A DNA stretch of 64,000 bases, taken from an uncultured Planctomycetales bacterium. GTDB taxonomy: Bacteria; Omnitrophota; Gorgyraeia; Gygaellales; Profunditerraquicolaceae. Below are positions 1 to 37,326 of this stretch, piece after piece. The notes under the pieces are model-generated. The model did no database searches. It saw only the letters and a list, made by a program, of their open reading frames with translations, and was not told the origin of the DNA. A program made the position numbers and the translations under genes. The DNA is taken from assembly GCA_964645795.1 (NCBI GenBank), contig CAZYCL010000005.1, forward strand, positions 26,006 through 90,005, given 5' to 3'. How positions within the stretch are numbered: position 1 is the first letter of the stretch; each line of letters opens with the position of its first letter.

Positions 1-2308
1 GCAGCGGCCAAGGCAGGGAATCCAGTTCTTGCAGCAGGGGCCGCAAGGAGTTTACCTTGACCGCGCCATTATCCCTGTAGACTAAACCTTTTACGGTATT
101 AAATTTTCCGGCCCCGGACAGCTCCCTGAATAGCTCAAGCGCCGTTCGCTCATACTCGCCAAACATGGAGAAATCGATGCGCGGATTCTTGACTAGGAAC
201 TCCGGTTGGCGGATATTATAATCCAGCCCGCATACCGCTATCTTTGTCCGGCAACGGTCTATGCGCCCTAGCAGGGCCAAATCGTTATCCAGGGAAGGGG
301 TGGAGACTTCCGCAATAAGAAGCCGGGGCGCCAGCTCGTTTATCAGTTTTACGAATGCCTCCTCTTCCATCTCTTCGGCGATGGCATCGATAACCCTGAC
401 CTTGATCCCGTTTGCCAAAAGCAGGGAAGCGGTATAGGCCAAAAAGAACGGAAAAGGCAGGTAAGCCTCTTCTGTCTCATTCTTCATATGCGGCCAGCGC
501 GAGCCTGCGCGCACCCCGCATAGCCCGTCTTTGCTCCACGGCATGTTCGCCAAGACTACGTCTACCGGCAACAGCGGCTGGGCAAGATATTTCCTGTTGG
601 CCTTTTCTTCTATAAAAGGCAGACGTTGTCGATATAGCTTTTCTCTTACGAAGGCGATATAACCCGGCAGATCCGCTTCCTGCAGTATTTTTACCTTAGC
701 CGAAAATACCGGGCATCCCTTCTTTTTCTTAAGCCTGATTGTCTTTTTGCTTGAAGACACCTGGGCCATAATAAACCGGGCCTGGTTAAAACAATCGCTG
801 TTGCGGATCTTCGGCTTGACAACCGCATCTTCATAACTGGAACCAAACTCAAATAACACGCTGGGAAGACGCTCGCTGCCTGTATCTGAACTGACCCCAA
901 GCGAATCAGAATAAATATTGTGTAACGGGATATCCACCCATTTGTTTTCCTTGGCGTTTATTTTGGGGAAAACCCCTTGTTCCCAGGAATTCATCCAGCG
1001 GCTAAAATGCGCTGCCGGGACCAGGATCCCGGATTCGACTTCCAAAAGACGCATATTACGCCAGGCTTTTAATTCAACCGACCAGCTGACCGTGTGTTCA
1101 TCTTCCAATAATATGCTCCATGTCTGGATTAAGGCTATCCCGGGCCAGCGGAAAGTAATGGTAATTTGGCGTTTGGAAGGCTTTTTCACCTCCCAAAAAG
1201 CATAGCTGGTATAAAAGTGCTGCGGGACAATCATCTGCTCGCTAAAGGAACCGACAAATCCGTTATAGCTGGTAACGGCCGAGTTATCCCAGAAGATCTG
1301 CACAGACCTGTTTTCGGAATCCGCTACCAGGCGCAGCCTCCCCGCCTCGATGGACTCTTTGTTTTTTGTAGACCTGTAAAATATGCCAAGTAAAGAAAAA
1401 TAAAGGTTGGACGGCGAGAACGTATTGATGAAAAAGTAGCATAGCTTGGAAGGCGAGAAGGAGTTAAGGACCGGCGTTAACCCCAGAATATAATATATGT
1501 ATTTTGAGCCTCGCTTAAAGGCGTAAAAAAAGCCCCCCTTGCTATAATGCTCCAGATACCGGCGCCAGAGATACTCAAACCTCCCCTTTTTCCGGTTGGT
1601 TTCAACGTACGCCTTGAACCGGACCATATCTTCGATCAAGCTGACACGGCAGGAAAAAATATTGTCTTGTTTACCGGGGCTCGAACCAGTCGAGTCGTAA
1701 ACCGGCTTTACCAGAGCGAACAGAGCTCTCAGGCTATCATGATAATGGCTATTCAATATTTTGGGGTAAGCCGGATAAGGGACATCGCTGAATTCAAAGA
1801 TCAAGGCAGGATTGCCGGGCCCGGTATGTTGCCCGCTTACACCCAAATAATAAGACTTCAGCTCGTCGGAGCTGATCTTCTTCCAGCTCGTGTCATCTTT
1901 GCCGATCTTAGGGAAAAAACTGTTTTTGGTTACGCTGAACCACCGTTGGTAATCCGTATAAAGTTTAAGGCCTATCTCGTGCCTATTGACAAGCGGTTTT
2001 CCCGGGCAAATAAAGCCGACCTTCCAAGTGAATGTTTCCTGGTCAACGATAGAGATATCCCAGCTCTGGATGAAATCCTGATCTTTCCATTTCAAAAGCA
2101 AGCTTACCCTGTCCGGACCGAAATCGTTTACCTGCCAAGAGGCCCTTTCGGAATAAAAGCTGTCGCCTGCGCTATGGCCGACTATACTGGCAAGCCCCGT
2201 GTCTCTGGTTATTTCGGTGCCTGCCCAAAATATGGACACCCTCCCGTTTTCCGGGAAGACCGCAAGCCTGAGTTTCCCCTTATTCAGCTCAAACTGATTA
2301 TCTGGCAT
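1..2308 (-). CDS. B12-binding (class B) radical SAM protein, N-terminal ~769 aa only; the gene continues past the window start. Two ~135-aa tandem repeat modules, then a cobalamin-binding domain.
   Basis: Not in the supplied ORF track, because no stop codon lies inside the window. Hand translation of the minus strand from ATG at 2308..2306 gives an open frame all the way to position 1 (MPDNQFELNKGKLRLAVFPENGRVSIFWAG...). I checked frame continuity at 1..120, 361..720, 901..1140 and 1501..1620. The distal part (...PLLPVDVVLANMPWSKDGLCGVRAGSRWPHM...IAVCGLDYNIRQPEFL...GLVYRDNGAVKVNSLRPLLQELDSLPWPL) has the pattern of the B12-binding domain that precedes the CxxxCxxC core in class B radical SAM enzymes. 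The stop of the upstream gene (2316) sits 8 nt before this ATG. Confidence 0.55.
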   Translation of the reverse strand, partial: MPDNQFELNKGKLRLAVFPENGRVSIFWAGTEITRDTGLASIVGHSAGDSFYSERASWQVNDFGPDRVSLLLKWKDQDFIQSWDISIVDQETFTWKVGFICPGKPLVNRHEIGLKLYTDYQRWFSVTKNSFFPKIGKDDTSWKKISSDELKSYYLGVSGQHTGPGNPALIFEFSDVPYPAYPKILNSHYHDSLRALFALVKPVYDSTGSSPGKQDNIFSCRVSLIEDMVRFKAYVETNRKKGRFEYLWRRYLEHYSKGGFFYAFKRGSKYIYYILGLTPVLNSFSPSKLCYFFINTFSPSNLYFSLLGIFYRSTKNKESIEAGRLRLVADSENRSVQIFWDNSAVTSYNGFVGSFSEQMIVPQHFYTSYAFWEVKKPSKRQITITFRWPGIALIQTWSILLEDEHTVSWSVELKAWRNMRLLEVESGILVPAAHFSRWMNSWEQGVFPKINAKENKWVDIPLHNIYSDSLGVSSDTGSERLPSVLFEFGSSYEDAVVKPKIRNSDCFNQARFIMAQVSSSKKTIRLKKKKGCPVFSAKVKILQEADLPGYIAFVREKLYRQRLPFIEEKANRKYLAQPLLPVDVVLANMPWSKDGLCGVRAGSRWPHMKNETEEAYLPFPFFLAYTASLLLANGIKVRVIDAIAEEMEEEAFVKLINELAPRLLIAEVSTPSLDNDLALLGRIDRCRTKIAVCGLDYNIRQPEFLVKNPRIDFSMFGEYERTALELFRELSGAGKFNTVKGLVYRDNGAVKVNSLRPLLQELDSLPWPL

Positions 2309-2315
2309 TTATCGG

Positions 2316-3767
2316 TTAGATGAACTCTTCAAGCTGGTTCTCCTGAAGGTATTTGACAATATGATTGTGTTCGTTGACGTTCTCGCAGGAATCGCATTGC
2401 CGGTCATAAAGCTTCTCACCGCGGCAAAATTCGACATCCCTGTTATCCTTCATATGCTTGGCGGCCACGCGGTAACGATTGTATTTTTCGGAGAACCATA
2501 TCTCTTCCAGACTGTAATTGCGCAGGCTGTCTACCATCTTATTGCCGCAGCAAAAAAGCACCTCCCCGTCAAGCTGGATATTGCAAAAACTCCATCCGGT
2601 AAAACAACCCTGCCGCGCGAACATCCCGTGGGTCCTGCTGCCTTCCGATTGTTCGTAGGAATCCAGGTATACGCCGGAGAGCTCGTCCGTGCGTATCCCG
2701 CTGTCTTTAAGCTGCTTGACTGCCCTGGGCATGTTGTTTCTTAAATAATCGACCTGCTCCCTGCTTAGCTTAAGAAACTTATTCTGCTCATCAAGCAGTA
2801 TAATCTTGAACAGTACCGCGTCCACCCCCAACCTCATATCCATCTCTACGAAACCAAAAAGGTCTTTGCAGTTTAAATTATGTATAACGTGGGTCATGTG
2901 GATCTCGGTCTTCTTGCCTTTTTCCTTCTTATAAGAGCTCAAAAACCTGATATTCTCCGATATCCTGTGAAAATCGCTTTCGGGGCTGCGTGGGCATACC
3001 TGTTTATAGCTGGATGGCGTAGCCGCGGGAAGGCTAAAAGTAATAAAGGTGGCCCCTGAATCCAGCATGTATCTTGCCAGCTCCTCATCCAAGAAAAAAC
3101 CGTTGGTTATAGTCTCAAACTCCAGGCCGTTATCCCGGCACACCCCGACTATCTCTTTGATATTCGGGTGCATCAGGGGCTCGCCGTTAGCCAATAGGCA
3201 GATTTTTTGCACAGACATCCTGCCGGCGCTTTCTGCTATGCCTCTAAACATCTCCAGGCTCATTTTCCCCTTGAGGTAGTCGGGGTCTTTATGCGGATTC
3301 TGTGGCGAGTGCAGCCAGCAATGCAGGCAATCGGTATTGCAGTAGTGCAGGAGATCCACTACTATAGAATATGGCCCGGTAAAGGTATCTTCGCATATCA
3401 GGCCCAGGGCCCTTTGTAGCTGTGCGCGCTCATACCTGCTATCGTCTTTGATCCGGCTTAACTTCAATAAAAGGGAGGCCAAAACCCGGTCATCTACGCA
3501 AAGCCCCTTGCCGAAGGCCGATAGCCTTTTGTTAATGCCGCGAACGTAACTTAGCCACCGAGGTATGATATCTTTCACCGGGAAAAGCCCTAACTCCTCT
3601 TTGACGGACAGGCCGAAATCTTTTTCAAGCCTGCCCTTGAGCCTCAAGAAATTACTTTTGGTGACTGCGATCTCCCCGGTCCGGCAGCACTGATTACCAT
3701 CTGGGCCGCTTCCTTCGGCAGGCCGCTCTGCAAGCCGGATATACTCTTCAGTAGAATATTCTTTCAT
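2316..3767 (-). CDS. Radical SAM enzyme with a ~145-aa N-terminal extension and a Cys-rich SPASM/twitch-like C-terminus
   Basis: CxxxCxxC motif in YCNTDCLHC. C-terminal Cys clusters (CFTGWSFC...FCCGN...CDSCEN). Paralog of the 56844..58535 protein: both share LFPVKDI, GP..IV.D..H.CNT.C.HCW.H and a CD.C.N C-terminus. Confidence 0.7.
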   Translation of the reverse strand: MKEYSTEEYIRLAERPAEGSGPDGNQCCRTGEIAVTKSNFLRLKGRLEKDFGLSVKEELGLFPVKDIIPRWLSYVRGINKRLSAFGKGLCVDDRVLASLLLKLSRIKDDSRYERAQLQRALGLICEDTFTGPYSIVVDLLHYCNTDCLHCWLHSPQNPHKDPDYLKGKMSLEMFRGIAESAGRMSVQKICLLANGEPLMHPNIKEIVGVCRDNGLEFETITNGFFLDEELARYMLDSGATFITFSLPAATPSSYKQVCPRSPESDFHRISENIRFLSSYKKEKGKKTEIHMTHVIHNLNCKDLFGFVEMDMRLGVDAVLFKIILLDEQNKFLKLSREQVDYLRNNMPRAVKQLKDSGIRTDELSGVYLDSYEQSEGSRTHGMFARQGCFTGWSFCNIQLDGEVLFCCGNKMVDSLRNYSLEEIWFSEKYNRYRVAAKHMKDNRDVEFCRGEKLYDRQCDSCENVNEHNHIVKYLQENQLEEFI

Positions 3768-6604
3768 AAGGGCTTGTCGATGGATATAAGACCGCTGAAG
3801 TATTTATAAGCGCCGCAGCCCACCTCTTTGCCGGTGCGGGATACCTTTTCAAATCCGATACTCCTGCTTTTATAGACCTGGTTTGAGTTCTCCGCCGTTA
3901 CCTCGTATTGCCCTTTGTCCTCGCAGCTAAATGAGACAGCAGGAAGCCCTGCAGTATCGCGGCAGGATACGCTAAGCCGTTCTCCTGTTTTTCTTAACAT
4001 CTCTTCCCAGCCTAACAGGCCGAAGCCCTCAGGAAACTCCCCCTCACAGGCATCTGCGCATGACCAGCGGTAATAAGAATCAGAAATCATGATATTGGTC
4101 TGCTGTCTCTCCATCGAAGTGCCTGCAAAGACTTCCATGTCCACGTTCAAATGAAAGCCGTTACGCACGGACCTTAACTCCCATGTCTGGGATATGGGCA
4201 GGTACGGCCATATGCCTCGCACCAGCAGCCTGCCTTTTTTGTAAGCGATCTTTTCCCAGAGCGCATCCAGAGAACTGTACCATTGTTTTACATAAAAATC
4301 TTCGGAATAAATCGAGGTGTAGAGCCCGAAGTTCTTGGTCAACTCTTTATCTTTGTAGAAAATCCTGCATCTGCCTTTTTCAAACACAATCCTGTTGACG
4401 CCGGACTCGATTAAAAGCTGTTCCGATATGAGTTTCGATCCGGAGGGCAGCCTCGCCAGACCATTTGCGCAATCTTCTTTTTTCGGCTTAAGGCCGCCGT
4501 CCCCTCCCGCGCATATCCTTATATCGAAGAGAAGGTGCTCTCCTTTAGAGACGACCGCGTTATCTTTGGACTGGACATGAAGAAAGTATACCGTAGTGGT
4601 GGGCTGGCGGATTATCATGCCGTCCGAATCCCGGCTGTTCTGATCAAAGAGCTTCTTCAGGGAATTGAACATCGTGATACCGGAGACCTCGCTAAGAACT
4701 ATCTGCGGCAGCTCAATGCCGCTGGCCTGCGCATAAACCCCCAGGGTATTCGACGGATCGTTTTTCATCAACAGGTCTCTTGTGTCCCGGGCCTCGGTTT
4801 CCCCGGAGATCATCCCTTTTTCCTTGCCGGCAAACCAGGCGTTGTAGGCGGCGTCCAACAGGCAACGGAATTCTATATTGCTTAAAGGCATCTGCTGCCG
4901 GGCCTGCATGCTTACCCGGCATGAAATAACCCCCTGCGCCAGTTCCAGCCTCCAGGTCTCATGAAACGGAAGGCGGCGATGGAACCTGGATATATCAAGC
5001 CCCGACTCAGACCTCTTGTGGATGACCGTTTCGTAATCGGACTCCGGATAGGGGCTACGCTCATTGCAAAAATGCACCTGCAGGCCCTGCGAAGAAGTCA
5101 GCTTTCTGCCCGCTAAATAAATGCCTATATTATTTGCTGATGCGGATAGGGAGAGCTCTCCATGCTTAATGCTTTTGGGTAGCAGCCCTTCGGGCAGGGA
5201 ACGCAGGTAATCATCCCTTTTAAGCAAATCATCGAATATGCGCAGCTTTAGATCAAAAAGACACTGGTTTTGAGGCCTTTCGCTGATAATCGGAGCGGCC
5301 TCTGCGGTGATCTTTGATTTTAATACCTGCGCGTCCAGCTCGCTGGCTGCCGTCTGCACCTCCAGGAGCTTGCCCGGGACATAAACCTCATCGCTCATGA
5401 CCACCGAAGGAAGCTTATCGGCCTTAGGATCGCAACTAAGTCCCACAAAGCTTACCGCGGGGCTGTGGCTGTCAATGCACTCCCAGGGGGCCTTGACATT
5501 TGCGCCTTTGGCCTCGAACTCCTTATTTTTATAAGGCGTCATCCATCGCCTGTAAGCAGGCCTTAACATCAGGCCCGCGCTTATCTCCTCCAGTCCTACA
5601 TCCTGACGGGACTGCATGGCGATCCTTATATCCACGCATTGGCTATCCTCATCAAGCATAACCTCCCAGCGCTGCTTCAAAGGCAGATACCAAAAGCTTC
5701 CGTCCAGGACTATCCTGTCAGAAGAAGATTCTACCAGCTCCCAGTCCGACTCAAAAGACAGATACGGCTTGCCGTAAGCGCTCACCATAGAGTAACCGCC
5801 CCATTCTTTGGTAAGGGGTTCTTCATCCCAGGTCAATATCAGCCTGCCGTTGTTAAAAACGGCCCCGAGCCTCTTGCCCTGAAGTATGCCTATGCCCCTC
5901 CTGCTGCCTACGGTCCTTAAATAAAAAGAGCTGACCTCTTTGAGCGTGCCGTCCTTGACCAGCCTGCCGTCTTTGAAGAACAGGCCCCTTTCACAAAACA
6001 GGCGCGCGGTCTCCAGGTCATGGGTAACAAAGAGTATGGTCTTACCTTCCTTCTTTAGCTCGAACATCTTATCGATGCATTTGCGCTGCGCGTAAAGGTC
6101 GCCGACGGCAAATATATCGTCGACCAGCAGGATGTCCGGGTCCACGTGGATGGCGATAGCGAATGCCAGGCGCATGTACATGCCCTGCGAATAAACCCGG
6201 ACCTGGGCATTTATGAACTTGCCGATGTCGGCGAAGTTTATTATATCGGGCAGCCTCTTATCTATCTCCTCTCTGCTCAGTCCGAACAGGCTGGAGGTAA
6301 GATAGATGTTCTCCCTGCCGGTGAGATCCTCCTGGAATCCCGCGCCGATATCCATAAGGGCTGAAACCCTCCCCTTTACCAGGGCCGCGCCTTTATCGGG
6401 TTTAAGCATGCCCGCGATGATTTTTAGTAAAGTGGTCTTTCCCGCGCCGTTTTCTCCGATGATGGCCACGCACTCGCCCTCAGAGACCTCAAGATTGATC
6501 TCCTTTAGCACCCATATGTCTTCAGAGGCCGTGCGGCCGCACTCCTTGAACTCTATTCTGTACTTTAGCCAGACATCTTTTAGGGATACGGCGGTCTCTG
6601 TCAT
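3764..6604 (-). CDS. wzt: Wzt-type ABC transporter ATP-binding protein for glycan export, with an unusually long (~700 aa) C-terminal multi-repeat extension
   Basis: N-terminal 245 aa has Walker A (GENGAGKTT), a YSQGMYMRL signature-like motif, Walker B (ILLVDD) and an H-loop (VTHD), typical of Wzt/TagH. It is immediately upstream of an ABC-2 permease. The C-terminal 700 aa contains at least 3 copies of a repeat also seen in the 1..2308 protein. Confidence 0.75.
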   Translation of the reverse strand: MTETAVSLKDVWLKYRIEFKECGRTASEDIWVLKEINLEVSEGECVAIIGENGAGKTTLLKIIAGMLKPDKGAALVKGRVSALMDIGAGFQEDLTGRENIYLTSSLFGLSREEIDKRLPDIINFADIGKFINAQVRVYSQGMYMRLAFAIAIHVDPDILLVDDIFAVGDLYAQRKCIDKMFELKKEGKTILFVTHDLETARLFCERGLFFKDGRLVKDGTLKEVSSFYLRTVGSRRGIGILQGKRLGAVFNNGRLILTWDEEPLTKEWGGYSMVSAYGKPYLSFESDWELVESSSDRIVLDGSFWYLPLKQRWEVMLDEDSQCVDIRIAMQSRQDVGLEEISAGLMLRPAYRRWMTPYKNKEFEAKGANVKAPWECIDSHSPAVSFVGLSCDPKADKLPSVVMSDEVYVPGKLLEVQTAASELDAQVLKSKITAEAAPIISERPQNQCLFDLKLRIFDDLLKRDDYLRSLPEGLLPKSIKHGELSLSASANNIGIYLAGRKLTSSQGLQVHFCNERSPYPESDYETVIHKRSESGLDISRFHRRLPFHETWRLELAQGVISCRVSMQARQQMPLSNIEFRCLLDAAYNAWFAGKEKGMISGETEARDTRDLLMKNDPSNTLGVYAQASGIELPQIVLSEVSGITMFNSLKKLFDQNSRDSDGMIIRQPTTTVYFLHVQSKDNAVVSKGEHLLFDIRICAGGDGGLKPKKEDCANGLARLPSGSKLISEQLLIESGVNRIVFEKGRCRIFYKDKELTKNFGLYTSIYSEDFYVKQWYSSLDALWEKIAYKKGRLLVRGIWPYLPISQTWELRSVRNGFHLNVDMEVFAGTSMERQQTNIMISDSYYRWSCADACEGEFPEGFGLLGWEEMLRKTGERLSVSCRDTAGLPAVSFSCEDKGQYEVTAENSNQVYKSRSIGFEKVSRTGKEVGCGAYKYFSGLISIDKPL

Positions 6605-6612: not shown

Positions 6613-7398
6613 TTAAAGGCGCTTAAGTATTTCATCTTCCTTGCGGGAAAAAAGAAGGTAACCGAAGAACAGGCTGGCGAGGGAAAAAGAGGTGCATAGC
6701 AGCCACATCTCTACCCGGCCAAAAGCGCCTGCGTATAATATAGACCTGTAGATCTCCATGTAACAAGTTCCGGGGTTTAAGATTATTGCCGGCCGCCAGG
6801 CCTGCGGCACCGCCTCCAGAGGATAGAATACGGGCGTCACCCAGAACAAGAACATCAGCCCTACGTTTAGAAAATGCGCAAAATCCCTGAAATACACGTT
6901 GATCACCCCGAATAAGAATGCTATCCCGAGAGTAAACAAAAAATGCAGCAGAAGGATCAAGGGCAATAAAAAGAGGCTGGCGAGAACCTGGGGGTTAAAG
7001 ATCGCGAATATCGGGAGCATGAAAACCAGACCAAACAAAAAGTTTATGAATTGTGCGCAGGTCACGGAGAAGGGGATCGTCTCCCGGGGCAGAAGGAATT
7101 GATTCATTATTTCCGTATGGCGCTTAAACGATTGAGTGGCATCGCTTGCCACCCCGGAAAAAAAGAACCACGGCAGGAGGGCGCTGAGGATAAAAAGAGG
7201 GTAGCCCTTGATGTCGGTCTTCATTATTTGAGTAAATACAAAGCTCACCGCCAGCATTATAAAAAAAGGGTTGAGCACGCTCCAGAAGAACCCCAGGACT
7301 GACCCGGAGTACTTTTCCTTAAGGGACTTCAGAATCAACCCCCAGACCGCTTGCCGCCTGGAAATAATCAAACGAATCCTTTGTTTTAGCATAACCAA
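6613..7398 (-). CDS. wzm: ABC-2 type polysaccharide export permease (Wzm/TagG-like)
   Basis: 261 aa with six hydrophobic segments and the ABC-2 permease pattern, located 9 nt upstream of wzt. Confidence 0.7.
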   Translation of the reverse strand: MVMLKQRIRLIISRRQAVWGLILKSLKEKYSGSVLGFFWSVLNPFFIMLAVSFVFTQIMKTDIKGYPLFILSALLPWFFFSGVASDATQSFKRHTEIMNQFLLPRETIPFSVTCAQFINFLFGLVFMLPIFAIFNPQVLASLFLLPLILLLHFLFTLGIAFLFGVINVYFRDFAHFLNVGLMFLFWVTPVFYPLEAVPQAWRPAIILNPGTCYMEIYRSILYAGAFGRVEMWLLCTSFSLASLFFGYLLFSRKEDEILKRL

Positions 7399-7545: not shown

Positions 7546-8571
7546 TTATTTTCGGGGAATTTTCGAAGCGAGCTTTTCGTAGACCGTTTCGGCGACAATC
7601 CGGTTACCGTAAGCACTAAGGTGCGGATCCGCCTTAAAGAATACGCCTGTTTTGTCCGAACAAGCCTTCTTCAGAGCAGGAAGAAGGTCAATATAGGCGA
7701 ACTTCGAGTTCTTAACGAGCTCGACCCAAGTTTCCCACGCATGCTGCCGGTCTTTTGTGCCTTGGACGAAATCCCGCGAAGGGATAAGTATAAAAATACA
7801 CTCTGCTTTGTTCTTCCTGCATATGCTCTCTATCGCATCAAACTGCCCCAGCGTAATCCTAAACGGCTCTTTGAACTCCAGGGGATGTAGGGCGGCGCCT
7901 GTTAAAGGAGTCTTGAACAACGGCCGCTTAAGCATCAAGGTAAAGAGCCGGCGTAACAGCGCGTAAGAACGCAGGTGCCTGTTTAAAAACAATCTGAATT
8001 GGATATTGCCTTTTATCTTATTCGATACCAGAAACCCGGCATCCTCCAAATAGGTTAGCCGTTCGCAGCCCAAGTCATCCCACCAGAACTGAACCAACAC
8101 CATATCGGGTCTCAGGCGGCCGCACTCCCGCTCCAAGAACTTCATCTCGTTATAAGTTGAGTAGCCTGGCACTCCCGCCTTAATTACCCTGATATTGCCT
8201 TTTGCAAAACTCAGCATCTTCTCTAAAAGGCTAAGGTATGTCTCTTCCAGCTCCACGCCTACGCCGAAAGCCAGTGAATCACCGATCCCCAGGAGCCTGA
8301 AGCCTGCCGGGTCTGCGCTATGGTCGCCGTCCCTCATGGCCATGGCGTTGGTATCGATGGATATGCTAAACTCCGGCTGTGAATATCTGCCTTTAAAATT
8401 TGCAGCCAGCGCATAACCATAATCATTGTTCCGGACAAAGTAGCCTTGGGGGAAGGCGTAATACGGCTGTTTCAGAATGAACCGTGCGGCAAATTCAAGA
8501 AGAACGAGGCTGACGATAATGACAAAAAAGACAAATACGAGGACCCTAAAGGGTTTTTTAACGCGGGGCAT
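7546..8571 (-). CDS. Membrane-anchored SGNH/GDSL hydrolase (polysaccharide esterase/acyltransferase-like)
   Basis: N-terminal TM helix. GDS motif in LGIGDSLAFG, a downstream block GVPGYST, and DPHLS (DxxH) near the C-terminus. Confidence 0.6.
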   Translation of the reverse strand: MPRVKKPFRVLVFVFFVIIVSLVLLEFAARFILKQPYYAFPQGYFVRNNDYGYALAANFKGRYSQPEFSISIDTNAMAMRDGDHSADPAGFRLLGIGDSLAFGVGVELEETYLSLLEKMLSFAKGNIRVIKAGVPGYSTYNEMKFLERECGRLRPDMVLVQFWWDDLGCERLTYLEDAGFLVSNKIKGNIQFRLFLNRHLRSYALLRRLFTLMLKRPLFKTPLTGAALHPLEFKEPFRITLGQFDAIESICRKNKAECIFILIPSRDFVQGTKDRQHAWETWVELVKNSKFAYIDLLPALKKACSDKTGVFFKADPHLSAYGNRIVAETVYEKLASKIPRK

Positions 8572-8583: not shown

Positions 8584-9612
8584 TTATTTGGTCAATACTT
8601 CTATCAAGCAGACGGTGGACGCGCTATTGCCGTTATTGTCGGTAACGGCCAGCTTTACTTCAAACTTCCTTGAGCCGTAAGTAGCGCTCCAGAAGGTATT
8701 AACGGGATTCTTCCTGGTGGAGGTATCGCCGTCGCCAAAATCCCATTCGTAGGCGATGATGCGCGAGCCGCGCGAGTATGACTTCCCGGCTGAAAAACGC
8801 ACGGTAAGAGGAGAATGGCCTTTTTGGGGCCTGGCAGTGATGACCGCAACAGGCGCCGAAACCGGCTTCGGTCTTTGTTGTTTTATGGCTTTGGTTTTCT
8901 TTACAGGGCGCTCCTTTGCGTCCTTCCTGCTTTTTGCCAGGAGCTTGGGTGGGGCTGCTGGTGAAGGAGCAGGCGGTTTCTGCTTAATTGATTCTTCCTG
9001 CGGCCTGACCATCACTGCAGACGCTTGGACTCCGGAGACCGCCGGGGCCGCTTCCTGTCCGGAAACAACCGCTGCTTCCTGAACCGGCTTAACCGCGACA
9101 ACCGCAGAAACAACGGCTTCCTGGGGGCTAAAGCCTTCTTTCTGCAGGTCGCTCTGGATAAATACTGCCAGCTCCTCTTTCAATCTCCTGCGCATCTCCT
9201 TTTCATAAGCGAACTCCTGTTCTTCTTTTTCGTCGATCTTGCGGCGGAACTCCGGATCTCTTTCGTATTTTCTGTCCCGGGAGGCGATGAAAGGAAGACG
9301 CAACAACCCCTCGAAAAACTCAACGAACAAGGCAGGCGGGTTCAAAAACATCTCCTTGAACCTGCTTTCGATGTAGCCCATTTTTTGATAATACTGCTCT
9401 ACTGTCTTTTTTCTTCTCTTAAACCGCTTCTTGGCAAGCGCCAGCTCATCCGGGGCGCTGTTATTTGGTCCTACCGTATATTCAGGGATCAGCCTCTTGT
9501 CGCGCGTGACGATGTAACCCTTATCGTAAGGATAACCCCCTTTTTGGAATTTATAGGTGGCGCAGCCGGCGATTAGGAATAGCGAAAAAAAGAATATAAT
9601 ATACCTCTTCAT
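8584..9612 (-). CDS. Lipoprotein with a charged coiled region, an Ala/Pro/Val-rich linker and a C-terminal PKD domain
   Basis: The ORF track extends this frame to 9966, but that extension overlaps folE. Starting at the internal ATG (9612) gives MKRYIIFFFSLFLIAGC, a lipobox signal peptide, preceded by GGAGCC. The C-terminus IAYEWDFGDGDTS...KLAVTDNNGNSAS is a PKD fold signature. Confidence 0.55.
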   Translation of the reverse strand: MKRYIIFFFSLFLIAGCATYKFQKGGYPYDKGYIVTRDKRLIPEYTVGPNNSAPDELALAKKRFKRRKKTVEQYYQKMGYIESRFKEMFLNPPALFVEFFEGLLRLPFIASRDRKYERDPEFRRKIDEKEEQEFAYEKEMRRRLKEELAVFIQSDLQKEGFSPQEAVVSAVVAVKPVQEAAVVSGQEAAPAVSGVQASAVMVRPQEESIKQKPPAPSPAAPPKLLAKSRKDAKERPVKKTKAIKQQRPKPVSAPVAVITARPQKGHSPLTVRFSAGKSYSRGSRIIAYEWDFGDGDTSTRKNPVNTFWSATYGSRKFEVKLAVTDNNGNSASTVCLIEVLTK

Positions 9613-9629
9613 CTTGGCTCCTTGTGCGA

Positions 9630-10187
9630 TCACATCTTCATCAATGCCAGCGTCTCCGAGCGGGTCTTTTCGTTCTCCTGGAAAACGCCCCTGACCACCG
9701 AAGTCACGGTAAGGGTCCCTGGCTTCTTTACTCCCCGCATGGACATGCACATATGTTCGGCTTCGATGACGACCATGCAACCTTGAGGCTTTAGCTTGCG
9801 CATAATTATCTCGGCTATCTGCGAGGTCAGCCTCTCCTGGACCTGGGGCCGCCTGGCCAGTATCTCGACTACACGCGCCAGCTTGCTTAACCCCGTTACC
9901 CTGCCCTGTTTGGGGATGTAGGCCACGTGGGCCTTGCCCAAGAACGGCAACAGGTGGTGTTCGCATATGCTGTAAAGCGGTATCCCTTTAAGAAGGATTA
10001 TCTCGTCGTGCTTCTGCTCCAGCACCACCTCAAGCTCTTTTTCGGGATCCCTGCCGATTCCGGAGAATATCTCCCCGCACATCTCGGCGACCCTGCGCGG
10101 AGTCTCCTTCAGGTCCTTTCTCTGCGGGTCCTCGCCTATTGCCTTGAGGATCTCTGCTACCGCTTTTGCGATCTTTGTCTTATCCAT
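9630..10187 (-). CDS. folE: GTP cyclohydrolase I
   Basis: 185 aa. Carries the ICEHHLLPF motif and matches FolE along the whole length. Confidence 0.85.
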
Positions 10188-10267
10188 TGGAGTTGTCGAT
10201 AATGCGTAATTTTGCGAATAGTTTATTATCTAACGAATACCCTGATTCTGCAATAAGTTTTTCTCGC

Positions 10268-11653
10268 TTATTTGCCTATGCAAAATCTGCCAAAGATCTT
10301 ATCCAGCAGCCCCTGCGTCAGGCTCTCTCCCGTGACCGTATCCAGGCTCAAAACCGCTTCTTTTATATCCTGGCAGACAAGCTCCGCAAAGAAACCTTGC
10401 TCCAGGCTTACCAACGCCTCCCGGATCAACCTGTCTGCCTTTTTAATCGGCTCAATATCCCTTATGCTGCTTAAGGTCGCCGATTCGCGCAAGAGGGGTC
10501 TTCCCTGACAGACAAGCCCTGTTATCGCCTCCTCCAAAGCCGCGATATTAAGCATCTTCTTTGCGCTAACGCAGACCGCCCTGTTGACAAACCCCTTTAA
10601 ATCTTGCGGCTTGACCCTCTGCTTTAAGTCGATCTTATTAATGACCGGTATCGTCCGTTCTTTTTTTAACCGCATAAGCCGCCGGTCCGCGTCCGTCAGC
10701 CTCCTGCTGCCGTCTAATACAAAAAGCACTATATCCGCCGAGGCAATGTGGTCCCGGGCGCGCTTAACCGATTTTTTCTCAACCGTATTACGCGGAGTTA
10801 TCAATCCGGCGGTATCAATGACCCTCAACGGAATACCCCGGACATCGATCATCTCTTCGATGCTATCCCTGGTGGTTCCGGCAACAGGGGTGACTATCGA
10901 ACGCTCCTGCTTAAGCAGGGCGTTTAAGAGCGAAGATTTCCCTACGTTGGGGCTACCGCATATCACGGCCTTAACACCCTCCCTGAATATCCTTGTTTTA
11001 CGGTGATCTTCGATAATGGCGCAGAGGCGACGGGATATCCGCTTAAGCCCTTCCTCAAGCTGCCCCGACCGCAACGCCTCTATGCCTTCTTCGGGGAAAT
11101 CTATATCTGCCTCTAGCGCTGAAAGGATATCCATTAACGACTCTCTTAGCCCGGATACCTCCCTTGACAGGCTGCCTCTTAATTGCCTCAGGCCTATATC
11201 AAGAGCGGCTTCGCTTTTTGCGCGTATAATATCCAGGACCGCCTCTGCCTGCGCCAGGTCTATCCTGCCGTTCAAGAATGCTCTCTTGGTAAACTCTCCC
11301 GGTTCGGCAAGCCTGGCGCCGCGAGCCAGGACCAGCTCAAGCACGGCTTTTACTGCTGCCAGGCCGCCGTGGCAGTTTATCTCCACCACGTCTTCCCGGG
11401 TATAGGAGCGGGGCTGACGCATCACCGAAAGGATCACTTCATCGATCAGCCTGGAACCGTCTTTGATCCAGCCATAACGCAGGGTGTAACTCTTAAACTG
11501 CGACGGCCGCCCACTTCCCTTGGAATAAAATATCTTATCGGCGATAGAAAGCGCCTCCCTGCCGCTCAAGCGCACGATCCCGATGCCGGATTCGCCCATG
11601 GCGGTAGCTATGGCTGCTATCGTATCTGCGGATATTCCGGGTTTAGAAGTCAT
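10268..11653 (-). CDS. mnmE: tRNA modification GTPase MnmE (TrmE)
   Basis: N-terminus DTIAAIATAMGESGIGIVRLSG, G-domain GSPNVGKSSLLNAL, C-terminal CIGK. I placed the start at the internal ATG 11653, which forms an ATGA overlap with the upstream gene's stop (the track start is 11677). Confidence 0.85.
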   Translation of the reverse strand: MTSKPGISADTIAAIATAMGESGIGIVRLSGREALSIADKIFYSKGSGRPSQFKSYTLRYGWIKDGSRLIDEVILSVMRQPRSYTREDVVEINCHGGLAAVKAVLELVLARGARLAEPGEFTKRAFLNGRIDLAQAEAVLDIIRAKSEAALDIGLRQLRGSLSREVSGLRESLMDILSALEADIDFPEEGIEALRSGQLEEGLKRISRRLCAIIEDHRKTRIFREGVKAVICGSPNVGKSSLLNALLKQERSIVTPVAGTTRDSIEEMIDVRGIPLRVIDTAGLITPRNTVEKKSVKRARDHIASADIVLFVLDGSRRLTDADRRLMRLKKERTIPVINKIDLKQRVKPQDLKGFVNRAVCVSAKKMLNIAALEEAITGLVCQGRPLLRESATLSSIRDIEPIKKADRLIREALVSLEQGFFAELVCQDIKEAVLSLDTVTGESLTQGLLDKIFGRFCIGK

Positions 11654-12501
11654 ATTCCCTGTTTTTCGCACCACCAATGCTCCTCCACATCGCGGCAGAT
11701 GCTGGCTATATGATAGCCTTTGGAGTTAAGAAAATCCCGTACGTCTGCCAGCGTGTGCCCAAAATACTTCTCATAGAAGTAATCATGGATGCTGACAAGC
11801 AGGGCCGGCGAGACCTCTTCCAAAAACCTCCCTGCCCCGCGCAACACTAAAAACTCCGCCCCCTCCACGTCGCACTTTATGAGGCCAGGACGGCCCCTGA
11901 AACCAGCGCAACAGAACAGCCCGTCGATACGGTATATGGGGATACCGGGATCCCTGTTTTTATCCTGAAGGTTAAGTTGTTTCTCGTGATATAAGTCGGC
12001 CTTTGGGCCGAGCTTGAATATTTCTCTTCTTGTCTCTTCCAGAGCAGAATCGAGGCTCGCCGCAGTCGGGTGAGTATCAGAAATAAACCCCCGTAACAGA
12101 TGCAGCCTGTTTCTGTCGGCGAAGCGGCAGGCTTCTTTAGTTATGCTCAGATTTTTGACGTCCGAATCTACGGCGTAGACCTGGACGCTGGGCTGGGCAA
12201 ATAAAGCGGCGATTGAATAAATACCCTTATTGCATCCGATATCGATAAAAAAAGAGCCGGGGTGGCCTCTAAACCAGGCAACTGCCTTACTGATAGGCTC
12301 TTTTTCATACTCCTGCCAACCCCAGCTGGCTATGGCCGGCGGCACCGAAACAAAGACGTTGCCCGGCAACCTGATCTTTATCCTGTCTCCGCAAAGACGC
12401 ACAAGAAAATAGTATATGGCGCGTAAAATTCCCCATAACCAAGACCTCTTTTCCCAGAATTTCGCGTGCCTTATTTTTTTTGCTATCTCATAAAAGAACA
12501 T
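11650..12501 (-). CDS. FkbM-family SAM-dependent methyltransferase
   Basis: FIDIGCNKGIYS and IKCDVEGAEFLVLRG motifs, characteristic of the FkbM family. Confidence 0.7.
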   Translation of the reverse strand: MFFYEIAKKIRHAKFWEKRSWLWGILRAIYYFLVRLCGDRIKIRLPGNVFVSVPPAIASWGWQEYEKEPISKAVAWFRGHPGSFFIDIGCNKGIYSIAALFAQPSVQVYAVDSDVKNLSITKEACRFADRNRLHLLRGFISDTHPTAASLDSALEETRREIFKLGPKADLYHEKQLNLQDKNRDPGIPIYRIDGLFCCAGFRGRPGLIKCDVEGAEFLVLRGAGRFLEEVSPALLVSIHDYFYEKYFGHTLADVRDFLNSKGYHIASICRDVEEHWWCEKQGI

Positions 12502-13865
12502 TGCTTTACTCCTGCAAGATATGAGCGCACCTGACCGACAAGAAACAGTGAACCGGCTACCAAAACAAGGCTTTCTCTGCGGCAGCCCCGGATTGCCCGT
12601 CTTGTCGCCGCACGACAGTTGGGCTCAGCCTCGGCCTTAGTGCCCTTGAAGAACCCGGTCAACGCCTGCGGATGGGCAGCGCGCGGATTGTCTGCCATCG
12701 TAAGGATCACTCTGTCTGCGAATTTACCCAGGCACTCACAGATCCCCCTGATATCCTTATCTTTGGAGATACCCAGCAGTAGAATTATCTTTTTGCCCGG
12801 GAAGTTATCCCTTATGGCTTTTACCAAAGACTGGCTTGAGGCCTGGTTCTGTGCACCGTCGAGTATAATCAGGGGTTTGCGGCAGACGACTTCGCACCTG
12901 CCCGGCCAGACAGTATTATATAGGCCCCTTCTTACACGATCAACTCCGATATCGAATCCGTAAAAACCCAGGGCATCCACGGCGGATACCGCACAGGCGG
13001 CGTTGGTCAACTGATGGTCTCCTAATAATCTTATTCTCATGCGAGGGTAGCTTTTAAATACGCCCTTGATCATAAATCTTCCGGTTTTATCTTTTTTAAT
13101 GGCTGCCTCTTTGCCAACGACAAATAACCTGCCTGCGCAATCCTTGGCCCTCTTGCTGATGACCTTAAGCGCCTGTGTTTTTTGCGGCGCACTTATCACC
13201 AGGGGCCTCGCTGGAAAGCCCGCATCAAAAGCCTTAATGATGCCGGCTTTTTCAAATGCGATCCTGGATAATGTTTTCCCGAGCTTCTGCGTATGCTCCA
13301 GGCTTATCGGGGTTATCACGCTTACCAGCGGCCGGACGACATTGGTGGCATCAAGCCTGCCTCCCATGCCCGTCTCAAGGACTATGAAATCGGGCTTCTT
13401 CTCCTGAAAATACAAAAAAGCCAGCGCCGTATAGGCCTCAAAGAAAGAAATGGCGCCGTATCTTGAGTGCCTGAAAAAGGCTTCTGCTTTCTTGCGCAGC
13501 CCGCAGACCAGGCGCGCAATATCGCATCTGGTTATCATGCCCTGGAAGTCTCGCGGCCCTCGTACCTGGCCCTGTTTAGAAGTCAGTATCCTTATCCTTT
13601 CCCGAAAATCAACCAGATGAGGAGAAGTGTACAGGCCGACAGAATATCCGGCTTCTTTGAGGATGTGAGCGATAAAGGCGCAGGTTGAGCCTTTGCCTTT
13701 TGAGCCGGCAACGTGTATAAAGCGCAATCCTTCCTGAGGATTACCGACGGTCTCCAGGAAGTCGTAAAACCGCTCAAGCTTCAGAGATTCCTTATAGGAA
13801 TATTCCGGGATTTTTTCGTAATTAACGAGGGAGTTAAGGTAATCAGCCGCTTCTTGGTAGGTCAT
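12483..13865 (-). CDS. folC: Folylpolyglutamate synthase / dihydrofolate synthase
   Basis: Mur-ligase P-loop HVAGSKGKGST and FolC-like overall order. Confidence 0.8.
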   Translation of the reverse strand: MTYQEAADYLNSLVNYEKIPEYSYKESLKLERFYDFLETVGNPQEGLRFIHVAGSKGKGSTCAFIAHILKEAGYSVGLYTSPHLVDFRERIRILTSKQGQVRGPRDFQGMITRCDIARLVCGLRKKAEAFFRHSRYGAISFFEAYTALAFLYFQEKKPDFIVLETGMGGRLDATNVVRPLVSVITPISLEHTQKLGKTLSRIAFEKAGIIKAFDAGFPARPLVISAPQKTQALKVISKRAKDCAGRLFVVGKEAAIKKDKTGRFMIKGVFKSYPRMRIRLLGDHQLTNAACAVSAVDALGFYGFDIGVDRVRRGLYNTVWPGRCEVVCRKPLIILDGAQNQASSQSLVKAIRDNFPGKKIILLLGISKDKDIRGICECLGKFADRVILTMADNPRAAHPQALTGFFKGTKAEAEPNCRAATRRAIRGCRRESLVLVAGSLFLVGQVRSYLAGVKQCSFMR

Positions 13866-13965
13866 CGTCCCGTGTGCTAGTAAATTGGGGACGGTTTTCG
13901 TTAAGAGAGCCGTCCCCGATTGCTGGTTTTTCTTTGGGTTAACACGCTTTAGCTGGCGGGCGCAT

Positions 13966-15519
13966 TTAATGCCTGAAGTGGCGCATGCCGGTAAAGACCA
14001 TGCTGATCTTATGTTTATCCGCGGCTTTTATTATCGCTTCATCGGCGATAGAGCCGCCGGGCTGGATTATCGCTTTTATACCGTTCTTTGCGGCTAGTTT
14101 TATCGCATCTTCCTTGGGGAAAAACGCGTCCGATGCCAAAACTGCACCCTTAGCCAGCCCCGCGGATTTTTTGGTGGAAATATACACCGAATCAACGCGC
14201 GACATCTGTCCGGCGCCTATGCCTACCGTTCTTGTTCCCCTTGCAAGGACTATGGCGTTGGATTTTACGTGCTTTGCTATTTTCCAGGCAAAGATAAGAC
14301 TGGCCATCTCCTTCTTAGTGGGCCTTTTCTTTGTCACGACCTTAAGCTTTTCCTTATCCAGCAGCGCCAGGTCCTTGTCCTGGACAAGCAGTCCTGCCGA
14401 TACGCGTTTAAGATCCATCTCATCTGCTGCCGAGAAATCCGGACACTCAAGCAACCGCAGGTTTTTCTTTTCCTTGAATAGGCTTAAGGCCTCCTTCTCA
14501 AAGGCAGGCGCTATGACGCACTCTAAGAACCCGCTTTTAAAAACGGCCCTAGCGGTATCCAGGTCCATCTTCCTGTTTAAAGCCACTATCCCGCCGAAGG
14601 CGGAAAGCTTATCGCACTCCCATGCTTTGACATATGCCTTAGCTAAACTTTTACCTTCGGCCGCTCCGCAAGGATTGTTGTGTTTTACGACGACGGCTGC
14701 GGGAAGCTCAAACTCCTTTACCAACTCCATGGCGGAGTTCAGGTCCAGTATGTTATTAAAAGACAATTCCTTGCCCTGCAGCTGTTTCAGATTTATTATT
14801 CCGCCAGCTGCCCCAGTCTGGCGGTAAAAAGCGGCCTTCTGATGGGGGTTTTCTCCGTAACGCAGCTCCTGCAGCTTTTCAAACGCCAGGCTCAACCTTT
14901 GCGGCAACATACTCCCCTTTTGGCCGTGGAAGCACCTAGCCAGATATTCATTTATAGCCGCGTCATAGCTGGCGGTATGGGCGAATGCCTTGACCGCAAG
15001 AGAGCGCATGAACGACCTTGAGAGAGCGCCGCCGCTTTTTTCCAGCTCATCCAAAACCCGGCAATAATCGGCCGGATCGCAAACTACCGCCACATCCTTA
15101 TGGTTTTTCGCCGCGGACCTGAGCATCGACGGCCCCCCGATATCGATGTTTTCAATGACATCCTCTATCCCGACCCCCGGCTTCTGCGTAGTTTTTTCGA
15201 AAGGATAGAGATTGACCACTACCATATCGATAAGGCCTATGCCGTGCTCCTGCAGGGTCTTTATATGCTGCGGATTATCCCTTAAGGCAAGCAACCCCGC
15301 GTGGATAGCCGGGTGCAGGGTCTTTACCCTGCCATCCAGCATCTCGGGAAAACCGGTGTAGCCGGAGACTTCCTTTACCGGTATCGAGTTATCCTGCAGG
15401 AGCTTTGCCGTGCCGCCGGTGCTGATTATCTCGATACCGTATCCGCAGAGCCGGCGGACAAACTCCGAAACTCCGCTCTTATCCGAAACACTAACGAGCG
15501 CCCGCTTTATCTGGACCAT
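13966..15519 (-). CDS. purH: Bifunctional AICAR transformylase / IMP cyclohydrolase
   Basis: 517 aa. MGS-like N-terminus (ALVSVSDKSGV...IISTGGTAK) and an AICARFT domain. Confidence 0.9.
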   Translation of the reverse strand: MVQIKRALVSVSDKSGVSEFVRRLCGYGIEIISTGGTAKLLQDNSIPVKEVSGYTGFPEMLDGRVKTLHPAIHAGLLALRDNPQHIKTLQEHGIGLIDMVVVNLYPFEKTTQKPGVGIEDVIENIDIGGPSMLRSAAKNHKDVAVVCDPADYCRVLDELEKSGGALSRSFMRSLAVKAFAHTASYDAAINEYLARCFHGQKGSMLPQRLSLAFEKLQELRYGENPHQKAAFYRQTGAAGGIINLKQLQGKELSFNNILDLNSAMELVKEFELPAAVVVKHNNPCGAAEGKSLAKAYVKAWECDKLSAFGGIVALNRKMDLDTARAVFKSGFLECVIAPAFEKEALSLFKEKKNLRLLECPDFSAADEMDLKRVSAGLLVQDKDLALLDKEKLKVVTKKRPTKKEMASLIFAWKIAKHVKSNAIVLARGTRTVGIGAGQMSRVDSVYISTKKSAGLAKGAVLASDAFFPKEDAIKLAAKNGIKAIIQPGGSIADEAIIKAADKHKISMVFTGMRHFRH

Positions 15520-15534
15520 AACACCCTTTCATGC

Positions 15535-16236
15535 TTACTTATTGAACCTGAAGTTTACCAGATCCGCATCCTGCATCACGTAATCCTTTTGCTCAAGACG
15601 CAGCTTTCCTGCTTGTTTTGCCTGGTTCTCTCCTCCGGCTTTGATAAAATCGTCGAAGGCGATGATCTCGGCACGAATAAAACCGCGCTGTATGTCGGAA
15701 TGTATGACGCCCGCCGCCTCCCAGGCAGTGGTTCCCTTCCTGATGAGCCAGGCGCGGTTCTCTTTATCGCCTACCGTCAAGAAGCTTATGTATCCTGCTT
15801 CCTTTACTGCCCTGGCAAGCAGCGCATCCGGGTCCTCGGGCCCTGCGGAGTTTACCGTCACCACCGGTTTATTCGTCCAAAATCCCGCCCCCGAGAGAAG
15901 GCGTAACTGGTCGCCGGAAACGCCTGCACTAAAAACCGTGGCCTCCTTCTCCAAAGCCTGTTTTATCCTGCCCAGGACCGTTTTCTCCTCTTGGTTCTCG
16001 CAGCGTGAAAGCCTGGTCTCGACAAACTCAAGGTCGCGCAAGATAAGGTCCGCAAGGTATTCCTGGGCCACAATTATCGCATCCGCCTCCATCGCCCCGT
16101 CTTCGCCGACGAGCTCCACCTGCGCATAGCTCTTTTTTTTAGCCGAAACCAGCTTGTCCGCCTGGTCCAGACGCGCATCTTTTATGTTCTTTTTCCCCGG
16201 CCCTAGCTCCGGCACCGAAATAACGCTGATTTTCAT
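15535..16236 (-). CDS. YchF-like protein lacking the N-terminal P-loop (coiled-coil + TGS domains retained)
   Basis: Aligns to E. coli YchF from about residue 40 onward (DARLDQADKLV vs DPRLDQLAEIV). The C-terminal TGS domain matches strongly (RAWLIRKGTTAWEAAGVIHSDIQRGFIRAEII...KDYVMQDADLVNFRFN). There is no GxxxxGKS motif, and only 15 nt separate it from the upstream gene, so no room exists for a G1 motif. Confidence 0.6.
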   Translation of the reverse strand: MKISVISVPELGPGKKNIKDARLDQADKLVSAKKKSYAQVELVGEDGAMEADAIIVAQEYLADLILRDLEFVETRLSRCENQEEKTVLGRIKQALEKEATVFSAGVSGDQLRLLSGAGFWTNKPVVTVNSAGPEDPDALLARAVKEAGYISFLTVGDKENRAWLIRKGTTAWEAAGVIHSDIQRGFIRAEIIAFDDFIKAGGENQAKQAGKLRLEQKDYVMQDADLVNFRFNK

Positions 16237-16251
16237 TTATGCTTTCCTTTT

Positions 16252-18204: not shown

Positions 18205-18295
18205 AGTCTTGGCTCCTTGTAATAATATTTTATATTATCTTGAGGAAAAGACTCCTGGTGCGTATAAAAAGATATATGGGTGCGAGGATAAAAAG

Positions 18296-18324: not shown

Positions 18325-18355
18325 GGTTTAATAAGGAAAGCGGCGCCTTAAGGCT

Positions 18356-21519: not shown

Positions 21520-21570
21520 TTTATTAATTTATATTTATATATGTTTAGCGCGCAGCCTGTGCGCAGGATT

Positions 21571-37325: not shown

Positions 37326-37326
37326 A

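Follow-up and report, generated by a model that had tools for sequence, protein, structure and literature searches.

The stretch of DNA that was analysed here (64,000 nucleotides (nt) of contig CAZYCL010000005.1, called the window in the following) contains a tight operon that encodes an ATP-binding cassette (ABC) exporter and two radical S-adenosylmethionine (rSAM) enzymes, and two of the encoded proteins carry copies of one and the same module of about 230 amino acids (aa). All four genes of the operon are located on the minus strand, and they are separated by gaps of 8 nt and 7 nt and by one overlap of 4 nt. Wzm (6613..7398), a membrane permease of the ABC-2 type (Pfam ABC2_membrane, E 7e-16), is encoded directly upstream of Wzt with the 8-nt gap, and the Wzm gene also precedes Wzt in most of the related loci for which upstream sequence was available. 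Wzt (3764..6604) has a length of 946 aa, of which aa 1-235 form the nucleotide-binding domain (5900..6604; Pfam ABC_tran at aa 33-164, E 1e-20). The Wzt stop and the start of the next gene share 4 nt; this gene encodes an rSAM/SPASM enzyme of 483 aa (2316..3767; Pfam Radical_SAM, E 2e-13, and SPASM, E 2e-8), in which the module was not detected by a scan with the module profile. The last gene (1..2308) encodes a B12-type rSAM protein and is cut by the start of the window. It was completed from locus L002, a public contig of 73.7 kb that encodes an identical Wzt and extends past the window start, and the full-length protein has 1072 aa. Beyond this gene, L002 contains four further complete rSAM genes (three of the SPASM type and one of the B12 type), and a fifth additional rSAM gene is incomplete at the edge of the stretch that was fetched.

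The exporter could be assigned to a type. The top NCBIfam models for Wzt were TagH and the galactan Wzt, both under their equivalog cut-offs, and models of the TagH/Wzt type scored 150-200 bits (200 bits for TagH versus 129 bits for DrrA). The closest solved structures were those of Aquifex aeolicus Wzt (8dku/7k2t, E 3e-63), and TarH/TagH was also found. Judged by its sequence and the adjacent ABC-2 permease, the protein is an exporter ATPase of the Wzt/TagH type.

The module is present in exactly three full copies in the tail of Wzt and in two copies in the N-terminal part of the B12-type rSAM protein. The Wzt copies are w1 (aa 237-467, 5204..5896), which carries the motif VFNNGR, w2 (aa 477-702, 4499..5176; hidden Markov model (HMM) E 3e-48), and w3 (aa 728-944, 3773..4423; HMM E 5e-62). 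The copies of the rSAM protein are rA (aa 3-235, 1604..2302) and rB (aa 315-545, 674..1366; HMM E 2e-61). The original prediction, which was made from the letters of the window, had recognised the same repeat in both proteins and had counted at least three segments in the Wzt tail. Both observations were borne out, and the positions were right, but both proteins are encoded on the minus strand.

The similarity between the copies is low but highly significant. Pairwise identities were only 20-27%. When the excised copies were compared by BLASTP, the E-value was 6e-22 for rA and rB, 3e-11 for rB and w1, 3e-10 for rA and w1, 2e-8 for rB and w2, and 5e-7 for rB and w3; within the Wzt tail it was 3e-11 for w1 and w3 and 4e-8 for w1 and w2. 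A pairwise alignment of the two proteins, the check that the original prediction had proposed, yielded five significant local alignments that pair the N-terminal part of the rSAM protein with the tail of Wzt, the best one with 48.9 bits and an E-value of 4e-10, while 100 shuffled Wzt tails did not exceed 24.6 bits. Each of the five copies was found by a profile built from 45 copies, with E-values of 3e-48 to 5e-62; this profile contains the five copies, and thus the values confirm the boundaries and are not an independent test. Neither Wzt aa 236-946 (Pfam E<=0.1) nor the first 560 aa of the rSAM protein had a match in Pfam or NCBIfam, in agreement with the earlier statement that the repeat could not be recognised as a named domain.

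In an alignment of 412 copies, 13 positions were conserved to at least 70% (T, G, S, W, Q, W, Y, W, G, F, P, N, R). Such a set of aromatic and polar residues would suit sugar binding, and His, Glu and Asp are absent from these 13 positions. All 13 signature residues are retained in w3, and 7 of 13 are retained in w2, the most diverged copy of Wzt. A stretch containing LPSV, which had been taken for a linker between the repeats, turned out to be a conserved beta-strand inside the module, and its Pro is conserved in 90% of the 412 copies. An additional motif, [VIM]FNNG[RK], is found in the first module after the ATPase, at about residue 244-250, in 48 of the top 150 relatives.

The spacer between rA and rB (aa 236-314, 1367..1603, minus strand) shares the motif EHY..GF.YA..RG.KYI with the orthologue P0014. 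It also has an insert rich in Phe, Tyr and Leu, which is absent in P0014. The spacer was considered as a membrane anchor and rejected, because no hydropathy segment exceeded the usual threshold and the orthologue lacks the hydrophobic insert.

A scan of all open reading frames (ORFs) of the window with the module HMM revealed a sixth, divergent copy (42875..43486, plus strand). It forms the C-terminus (about aa 575-778) of a GT-C glycosyltransferase (GT) that is similar to PMT_2/GT39 (41153..43489, plus strand; 778 aa) and whose N-terminal part matches Pfam PMT_2 (E 5e-12). The match (E 4e-22) is limited to the first half of the profile (positions 4-125), and the C-terminal half of this copy has diverged past detection. 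Therefore, the module occurs on an exporter, on an rSAM enzyme and on a GT-C enzyme within one genome.

Structure models were obtained for rA (5 sequences; the three unlabelled model values were 71.5, 0.76 and 16.9) and for w1 (45 sequences; 92.9, 0.90 and 19.1). Both models were all-beta, and the two independent models gave the same domain. The predicted fold is a galactose-mutarotase-like beta-supersandwich, and the models could be superimposed on aldose 1-epimerase. The structural matches comprised aldose 1-epimerases, accessory domains of the glycoside hydrolase (GH) families GH36, GH38, GH97, GH94 and GH2, polysaccharide lyases and OpgG/OpgD, and also YidC P1, PnsB2 and a PBCV-1 capsid protein. 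A Foldseek search was concordant and retrieved 46 PDB matches at E<=1e-3, none of which was a Wzt domain. Most of the fold relatives are carbohydrate-active proteins. The module profile had no significant match in the PDB by sequence. The module is distant from the established members of the galactose mutarotase-like superfamily, which also includes N-terminal or central domains of the named GH families, polysaccharide lyase families and OpgG/OpgD: the identity is only 5-13%, the Pfam profiles of the member families do not match, a conserved catalytic His/Glu is lacking, and the contexts of ABC-exporter ATPase, rSAM enzyme and GT-C enzyme are new for this fold. The module also does not belong to the aldose 1-epimerase family PF01263, because neither a profile match at E<=0.1 nor a conserved His, Glu or Asp was found.

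The position of the array within Wzt allows a comparison with characterised exporters. Known C-terminal domains of Wzt bind glycan; they are jelly-roll domains that form strand-swapped dimers and recognise a terminal cap (PMC9445017). The module array starts immediately after the nucleotide-binding domain and thus at the site of the known carbohydrate-binding domain (PMC9445017). The full-length Wzt of Aquifex (404 aa) could be aligned to the window Wzt over aa 10-242 only. This restriction of the alignment to the ATPase, together with the fold, shows that the tail is in the place of the classical domain but differs from it in fold and is not its homologue. This applies to the carbohydrate-binding domains of both E. 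coli O9a and Aquifex Wzt; for the former, the original prediction had suggested a structural comparison. The sequence of aa 236-946 had no match to Wzt_C (PF14524; 2R5O/6O14 type) at E<=0.1, and the module is not a jelly-roll domain of the strand-swapped dimer type. In Omnitrophota the module therefore stands where Wzt, the ATPase of ABC exporters of the O-antigen/teichoic-acid type, otherwise ends in a jelly-roll carbohydrate-binding domain, and its arrays there comprise 2-5 copies and only rarely more. Substrate-recognition tails on Wzt are already known as a kind of element, and the mutarotase-fold tail would be a further form of it.

The likeness to Wzt_C nevertheless extends beyond position. 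In E. coli O9a, Raoultella terrigena and Aquifex aeolicus the Wzt_C domain is, like the module, fused directly to the ATPase, and the Wzm/Wzt exporter is likewise encoded beside genes for making and modifying the polymer. By analogy, the job is likely the same, i.e., delivery of a lipid-linked polymer to the transporter (PMC9445017). The differences are that Wzt_C is a single jelly-roll unit, while the tail in Omnitrophota consists of supersandwich units of about 230 aa in tandem arrays of 2-8, and that Wzt_C recognises a cap, while the module tail may read a cap or the chain itself. The module does occur on tailoring enzymes; to our knowledge, a domain of the Wzt_C type has never been reported there. 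In the searchable literature, no description was found of the module, of mutarotase-fold Wzt tails or of clusters that combine Wzm/Wzt with rSAM enzymes.

To analyse the distribution of the module, a profile was built from the five copies and used to score 1.84 billion representative proteins. In total, 588 proteins were found at E<=1e-3, and 490 of them at E<=1e-10. The best 150 of the 588 were classified with HMMs and phmmer queries derived from the window proteins and, for a sample, with Pfam. A Wzt ATPase followed by 2-8 modules, mostly three, was found in 93 of the 150, two of which also end in an rSAM/SPASM part. Modules together with a B12-type or SPASM-type rSAM enzyme in the absence of an ATPase were found in 10, so that rSAM domains are present in 12 of the 150 when the two Wzt fusions are counted. 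Another 10 proteins are GT-C glycosyltransferases (PMT_2, "GT39") with 2-4 C-terminal modules, and the terminal module of one of these (P0016) was 34% identical to w3 (134 bits). The number of hydropathy segments predicted for the GT-C fusions varied between 7 and 12 and was too inconsistent for placing the module relative to the membrane. The remaining 37 proteins contain modules alone, and many of them are probably fragments. Two module proteins, P0082 and P0111 (MCM8813220.1 and MCM8813222.1), are encoded on one 18.3-kb contig of an Omnitrophota metagenome-assembled genome (MAG), where a protein of 1881 aa with about seven modules and without any other recognisable domain is located two genes away from a module-bearing rSAM protein of 1461 aa.

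All representatives that have a source name belong to Candidatus Omnitrophota. In addition, 22 loci were recovered from GTDB species genomes via one motif of a closer alignment of 5 sequences (A4), and thus they are biased to Wzt proteins with FNNG[RK][LIV][FL]LN. When genomes were scanned with the Wzt tail as one single sequence, no locus could be confirmed. Of the 22 loci, 17 are from Omnitrophota MAGs, and the other five have the titles "uncultured Planctomycetales", "bacterium" or "uncultured bacterium". The window itself is thus very probably from Omnitrophota as well. The module is a previously undescribed sequence family that has so far been seen only in Candidatus Omnitrophota. According to the original prediction, its reading would be refuted if the repeat were a common generic fold, such as Ig or FN3, that is spread over unrelated proteins. 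This is not the case: the fold class is indeed common, but the sequence family was found only with Wzt, rSAM and GT-C proteins, and only in Omnitrophota.

The ORFs of the 22 loci were called and scored with the same queries. Five loci end at or inside Wzt, and in 17 of the 17 informative loci rSAM genes are located directly downstream of Wzt, with one to eight of them per fetched flank. In 10 loci they include a gene for a fusion protein of 629-640 aa in which an N-terminal GT2 glycosyltransferase of 320 aa (Pfam E 6e-34) is joined to an rSAM/SPASM enzyme; this gene immediately follows Wzt in eight loci and is the second gene in two. For the proteins of 634-640 aa, the N-terminal part of about 320 aa was also considered as a diverged module, which was rejected at an hhalign probability of 0.2%. 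In two loci (L025 and L026) a gene for a module-bearing B12-type rSAM protein immediately follows Wzt, as in the window. In locus L024 of an Omnitrophota MAG, a single ORF of 1902 aa (9284..14989) encodes a Wzt ATPase, two modules, a B12-type rSAM part, a further module and an rSAM/SPASM part. P0028 (1856 aa) and P0129 (1217 aa) are further fusions of ATPase, modules and rSAM enzyme from other sources. Any single one of these fusions could be an artefact of assembly or frame. The link between the exporter and the rSAM enzymes is based on three independent lines, i.e., single-chain fusions, fixed synteny and the shared module. The co-occurrence of the module in Wzt and rSAM proteins, for which the original prediction had asked across genomes, was thus recurrent.

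Other unusual architectures were seen in the same loci. L012 encodes a GT2-rSAM/SPASM protein of 640 aa (12011..13930) and a protein of 658 aa in which rSAM/SPASM is joined to a class I methyltransferase (16408..18381). L026 encodes a protein of 1473 aa with three tandem rSAM/SPASM units (12968..17386).

The catalytic part of the B12-type rSAM enzyme (about aa 600-769, 1..511, minus strand) is cut by the window and contains a B12-binding match at aa 623-726 (E 5e-4), which is under the Pfam cut-off. In the full-length protein from L002 Radical_SAM and the motif CPFSCMFC (of the type CxxxCxxC) are present. The enzyme thus has the architecture of class B (B12-binding) rSAM enzymes and is a putative user of cobalamin. 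The catalytic part could be aligned end to end with NCBIfam HpnJ (TIGR03471; 259 bits, cut-off 577.6) and BchE (178 bits, cut-off 481), and lower scores were obtained with ApyD (141 bits), AprD4 (128 bits, cut-off 500) and P-methyltransferases (about 120 bits; 117 bits versus a cut-off of 600 for methylases of the PhpK type). All these scores are far under the curated cut-offs, and the protein is an rSAM enzyme with a B12-binding domain outside every named family. The label "methylase", which the original prediction had favoured, is thus not backed by a family assignment, and a role as a methylase or in making the export cap is conceivable only by analogy. The nearest curated families include two that act on sugars: HpnJ and AprD4, the best and the fourth-best match with about 400 aligned residues, catalyse a ring rearrangement (ring contraction by HpnJ) and a dehydration (AprD4 dehydratase), respectively. 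In contrast to the window enzyme, they have no N-terminal supersandwich modules, and they act on a hopanoid glycoside and on an aminoglycoside and not on a polymer.

The reading to which the highest probability was given, roughly 0.6, is that the module is a non-catalytic glycan-docking module that is common to the exporter and to tailoring enzymes. That the cluster makes a glycan or a glycoconjugate is indicated by the fusions with glycosyltransferases (GT2-rSAM and GT-C-module), by the ATPase of the Wzt/TagH type and by the fold, and tandem arrays of 2-8 units suit binding modules more than enzymes. The modules would bind the lipid-linked glycan that is produced by the cluster, the exporter and the tailoring enzymes would thereby be kept on one polymer, and the rSAM battery would rewrite sugars of this polymer on the cytoplasmic side, ahead of export by Wzm/Wzt. 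In this respect the module resembles the carbohydrate-binding modules (CBMs) of CAZy, which are non-catalytic, often in tandem and joined to varied catalytic partners on one polymer (binding by the module being predicted), and the expected shared effects are substrate targeting and avidity. Classical CBMs are mostly extracellular and on degradative enzymes, whereas the partners of the module are mostly cytoplasmic proteins of biosynthesis and export. With WbdD of E. coli O9a the system shares the idea that an exporter-linked enzyme modifies the polymer and the tail reads it (PMC3482155, PMC9445017). WbdD, however, is a SAM-dependent methyltransferase/kinase with a coiled-coil ruler and not an rSAM enzyme, and it has no domain in common with Wzt. 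In comparison, up to seven or eight rSAM genes are present here, and an action of any of their products at the chain end is purely hypothetical.

Several observations weigh against glycan docking or limit its scope. The rSAM enzymes of the SPASM type are known mainly from peptide maturation, and the Wzm-Wzt-rSAM operon of the window has no internal glycosyltransferase. The conserved residues of the module may just be residues of its core. The restriction to Omnitrophota is based on a pattern-limited genome scan and on few named representatives. In a nearest-neighbour analysis of the 412 copies by BLASTP, the copies were grouped by host class and array position and not by genome: rSAM copies were nearest to rSAM copies, position 1 of Wzt was nearest to position 1, and the last Wzt modules were nearest to other last Wzt modules and to terminal modules of GT-C proteins (34-40% identity). 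Thus the copies within one genome are old paralogues and not recent duplicates, and they possibly have different binding partners. The grouping by position fits a division of labour among the positions. From the glycan-binding proposal of the original prediction, the shared unnamed domain, the position in Wzt, a fold of the type found in sugar enzymes and carbohydrate-binding accessory domains and the recurrent fusions stood, while old paralogy weakens the step to a common ligand of all copies.

Part of this evidence would also suit a module that is a protein-protein docking element or scaffold, the copies of which bind each other or the ATPase and assemble a membrane complex that does not contact the glycan. 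Three independent single-chain fusions of exporter and enzyme suggest that proximity itself was selected, the [VIM]FNNG[RK] motif of the position-1 modules (48 of the top 150) would suit a fixed contact with the ATPase, clustering by position and host is also seen for structural parts, and structural or interaction domains with the same fold exist (YidC P1, PnsB2, PBCV-1 capsid protein). The large majority of the fold relatives, however, are carbohydrate-active. Moreover, the soluble domain of the GT-C enzyme presumably faces the periplasm, as in characterised GT-C enzymes, and its C-terminal module would then probably be out of reach of the cytoplasmic copies on Wzt and rSAM proteins. The known C-terminal domains of Wzt are also glycan binders (PMC9445017). 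A scaffold was regarded as unlikely, but as the main alternative. It is still less probable that the product is not a polysaccharide at all and that the module binds a SPASM-matured ribosomal peptide, an isoprenoid or another glycolipid with hopanoid-like side-chain chemistry. The typical role of SPASM enzymes in peptide maturation and the missing glycosyltransferase of the window operon would agree with such a product, ABC-2 exporters occur in peptide clusters, and among the nearest NCBIfam families are some of peptide maturation (ApyD, rSAM_ocin_1) and some of lipid metabolism (HpnJ, HpnR, rSAM_ladder_B12). Genome mining has also reported clusters for ribosomally synthesised and post-translationally modified peptides (RiPP-type) and "ladderane-like" clusters in Omnitrophota (PMC9902471). 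On the other hand, all rSAM family matches are far under the curated cut-offs, the ATPase is nearest to Wzt and TagH/TarH (8dku, E 3e-63; TagH 200 versus DrrA 129 bits), GT2 is fused to one of the rSAM enzymes in 10 related loci, GT-C glycosyltransferases carry the module as well, and the fold is typical of sugar-handling proteins.

The fold also raises the question of whether the modules are active aldose 1-epimerases (mutarotases), which would interconvert anomers or epimers during synthesis. Characterised mutarotases depend on a His/Glu pair. The missing conserved His and acidic residues among the 13 positions conserved to at least 70% in the 412 copies and the missing Pfam Aldose_epim match at E<=0.1 argue against this activity, as do the sequence identity of 7-10% to such enzymes and the tandem arrays of 2-8, which suit binding better, so that it was judged to be very improbable. 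A similarity by chance or due to composition, without any shared domain, might have been suspected from the low pairwise identity of 20-27%. It is refuted by E-values down to 6e-22, by shuffled sequences that reached at most 24.6 instead of 48.9 bits, by the 490 proteins found by the profile at E<=1e-10 and by the two independent models of the same domain, and its probability is negligible.

If the modules indeed dock glycan, a wider and more tentative picture can be drawn, to which less than an even chance was given: the surface glycan of Omnitrophota would be extensively rewritten by up to eight rSAM enzymes of the B12 and SPASM types, some of them fused to glycosyltransferases or methyltransferases, on a polymer that is docked to the exporter on the cytoplasmic side, and the mutarotase-fold modules would serve as a shared address tag for exporter, rSAM enzymes and periplasmic GT-C enzymes alike. 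No description of radical SAM chemistry on exported polysaccharides was found in the literature. Should this picture hold, it would describe the first polysaccharide export pathway with radical chemistry at the level of the polymer and, in addition, a new family of carbohydrate-binding modules. Polymer recognition by ABC exporters has so far been understood for one type, the jelly-roll domain of Wzt that recognises a terminal cap. Tandem mutarotase-fold modules would be a second, unrelated solution across a phylum, which is also used on tailoring enzymes. An exporter of the O-antigen type is linked here to a large rSAM battery, in some genomes physically via gene fusion. Genome-mining tools may label such clusters as peptide clusters or as "ladderane-like". 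Omnitrophota are tiny, largely uncultured and partly predatory or host-dependent bacteria, and their surface glycans are likely important in host contact; the module offers a concrete handle for identifying its ligand glycan.

Upstream of Wzm the window encodes an SGNH/AlgX-like hydrolase or acyltransferase (7546..8571, minus strand; matches to Lipase_GDSL_2 with E 6e-7 and to ALGX with E 7e-6, each slightly below its cut-off). Weak matches to this protein were found in four related loci (L009, L011, L019 and the window's own L002), and it is possibly a member of the same glycan system. The next gene upstream encodes a PKD-domain protein. Its longest ORF (8584..9966, minus strand; 460 aa) overlaps folE (9630..10187, minus strand), while the public gene call starts later and comprises 342 aa (L002 6993..8021). 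The actual product resembles a lipoprotein that ends in a PKD domain. A scan of the window with Rfam did not reveal any RNA family.

A second polysaccharide cluster is located at 44324..58535 on the minus strand. It encodes two GT2 and two GT4 glycosyltransferases, a Wzx-like flippase (Polysacc_synt), a GH5-like protein and three rSAM enzymes (338 aa, of the SPASM type, 493 aa and 563 aa), and none of its proteins carries the module. Therefore, rSAM enzymes are present within more than one glycan cluster of this genome. Another run of genes on the minus strand (18356..26524) encodes an rSAM enzyme similar to lysine-2,3-aminomutase, two ATP-grasp paralogues of the D-Ala-D-Ala-ligase type, a GT2 glycosyltransferase, an ABC exporter of the MsbA type with membrane and ATPase domains, a further GT2 and a GT4 glycosyltransferase. 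It may be another cluster for envelope modification, which adds amino acids.

Two gene pairs on the minus strand were also noted. At 36023..38451, hypD (E 5e-136) adjoins a gene for a HypF-like protein of 374 aa that comprises only the C-terminal, Kae1-like half of HypF and lacks the N-terminal acylphosphatase and zinc-finger part. At 31701..36019, the gene for a protein of 645 aa with an N-terminal PilZ domain adjoins the gene for a TPR/DUF3857/transglutaminase-like protein of 793 aa.

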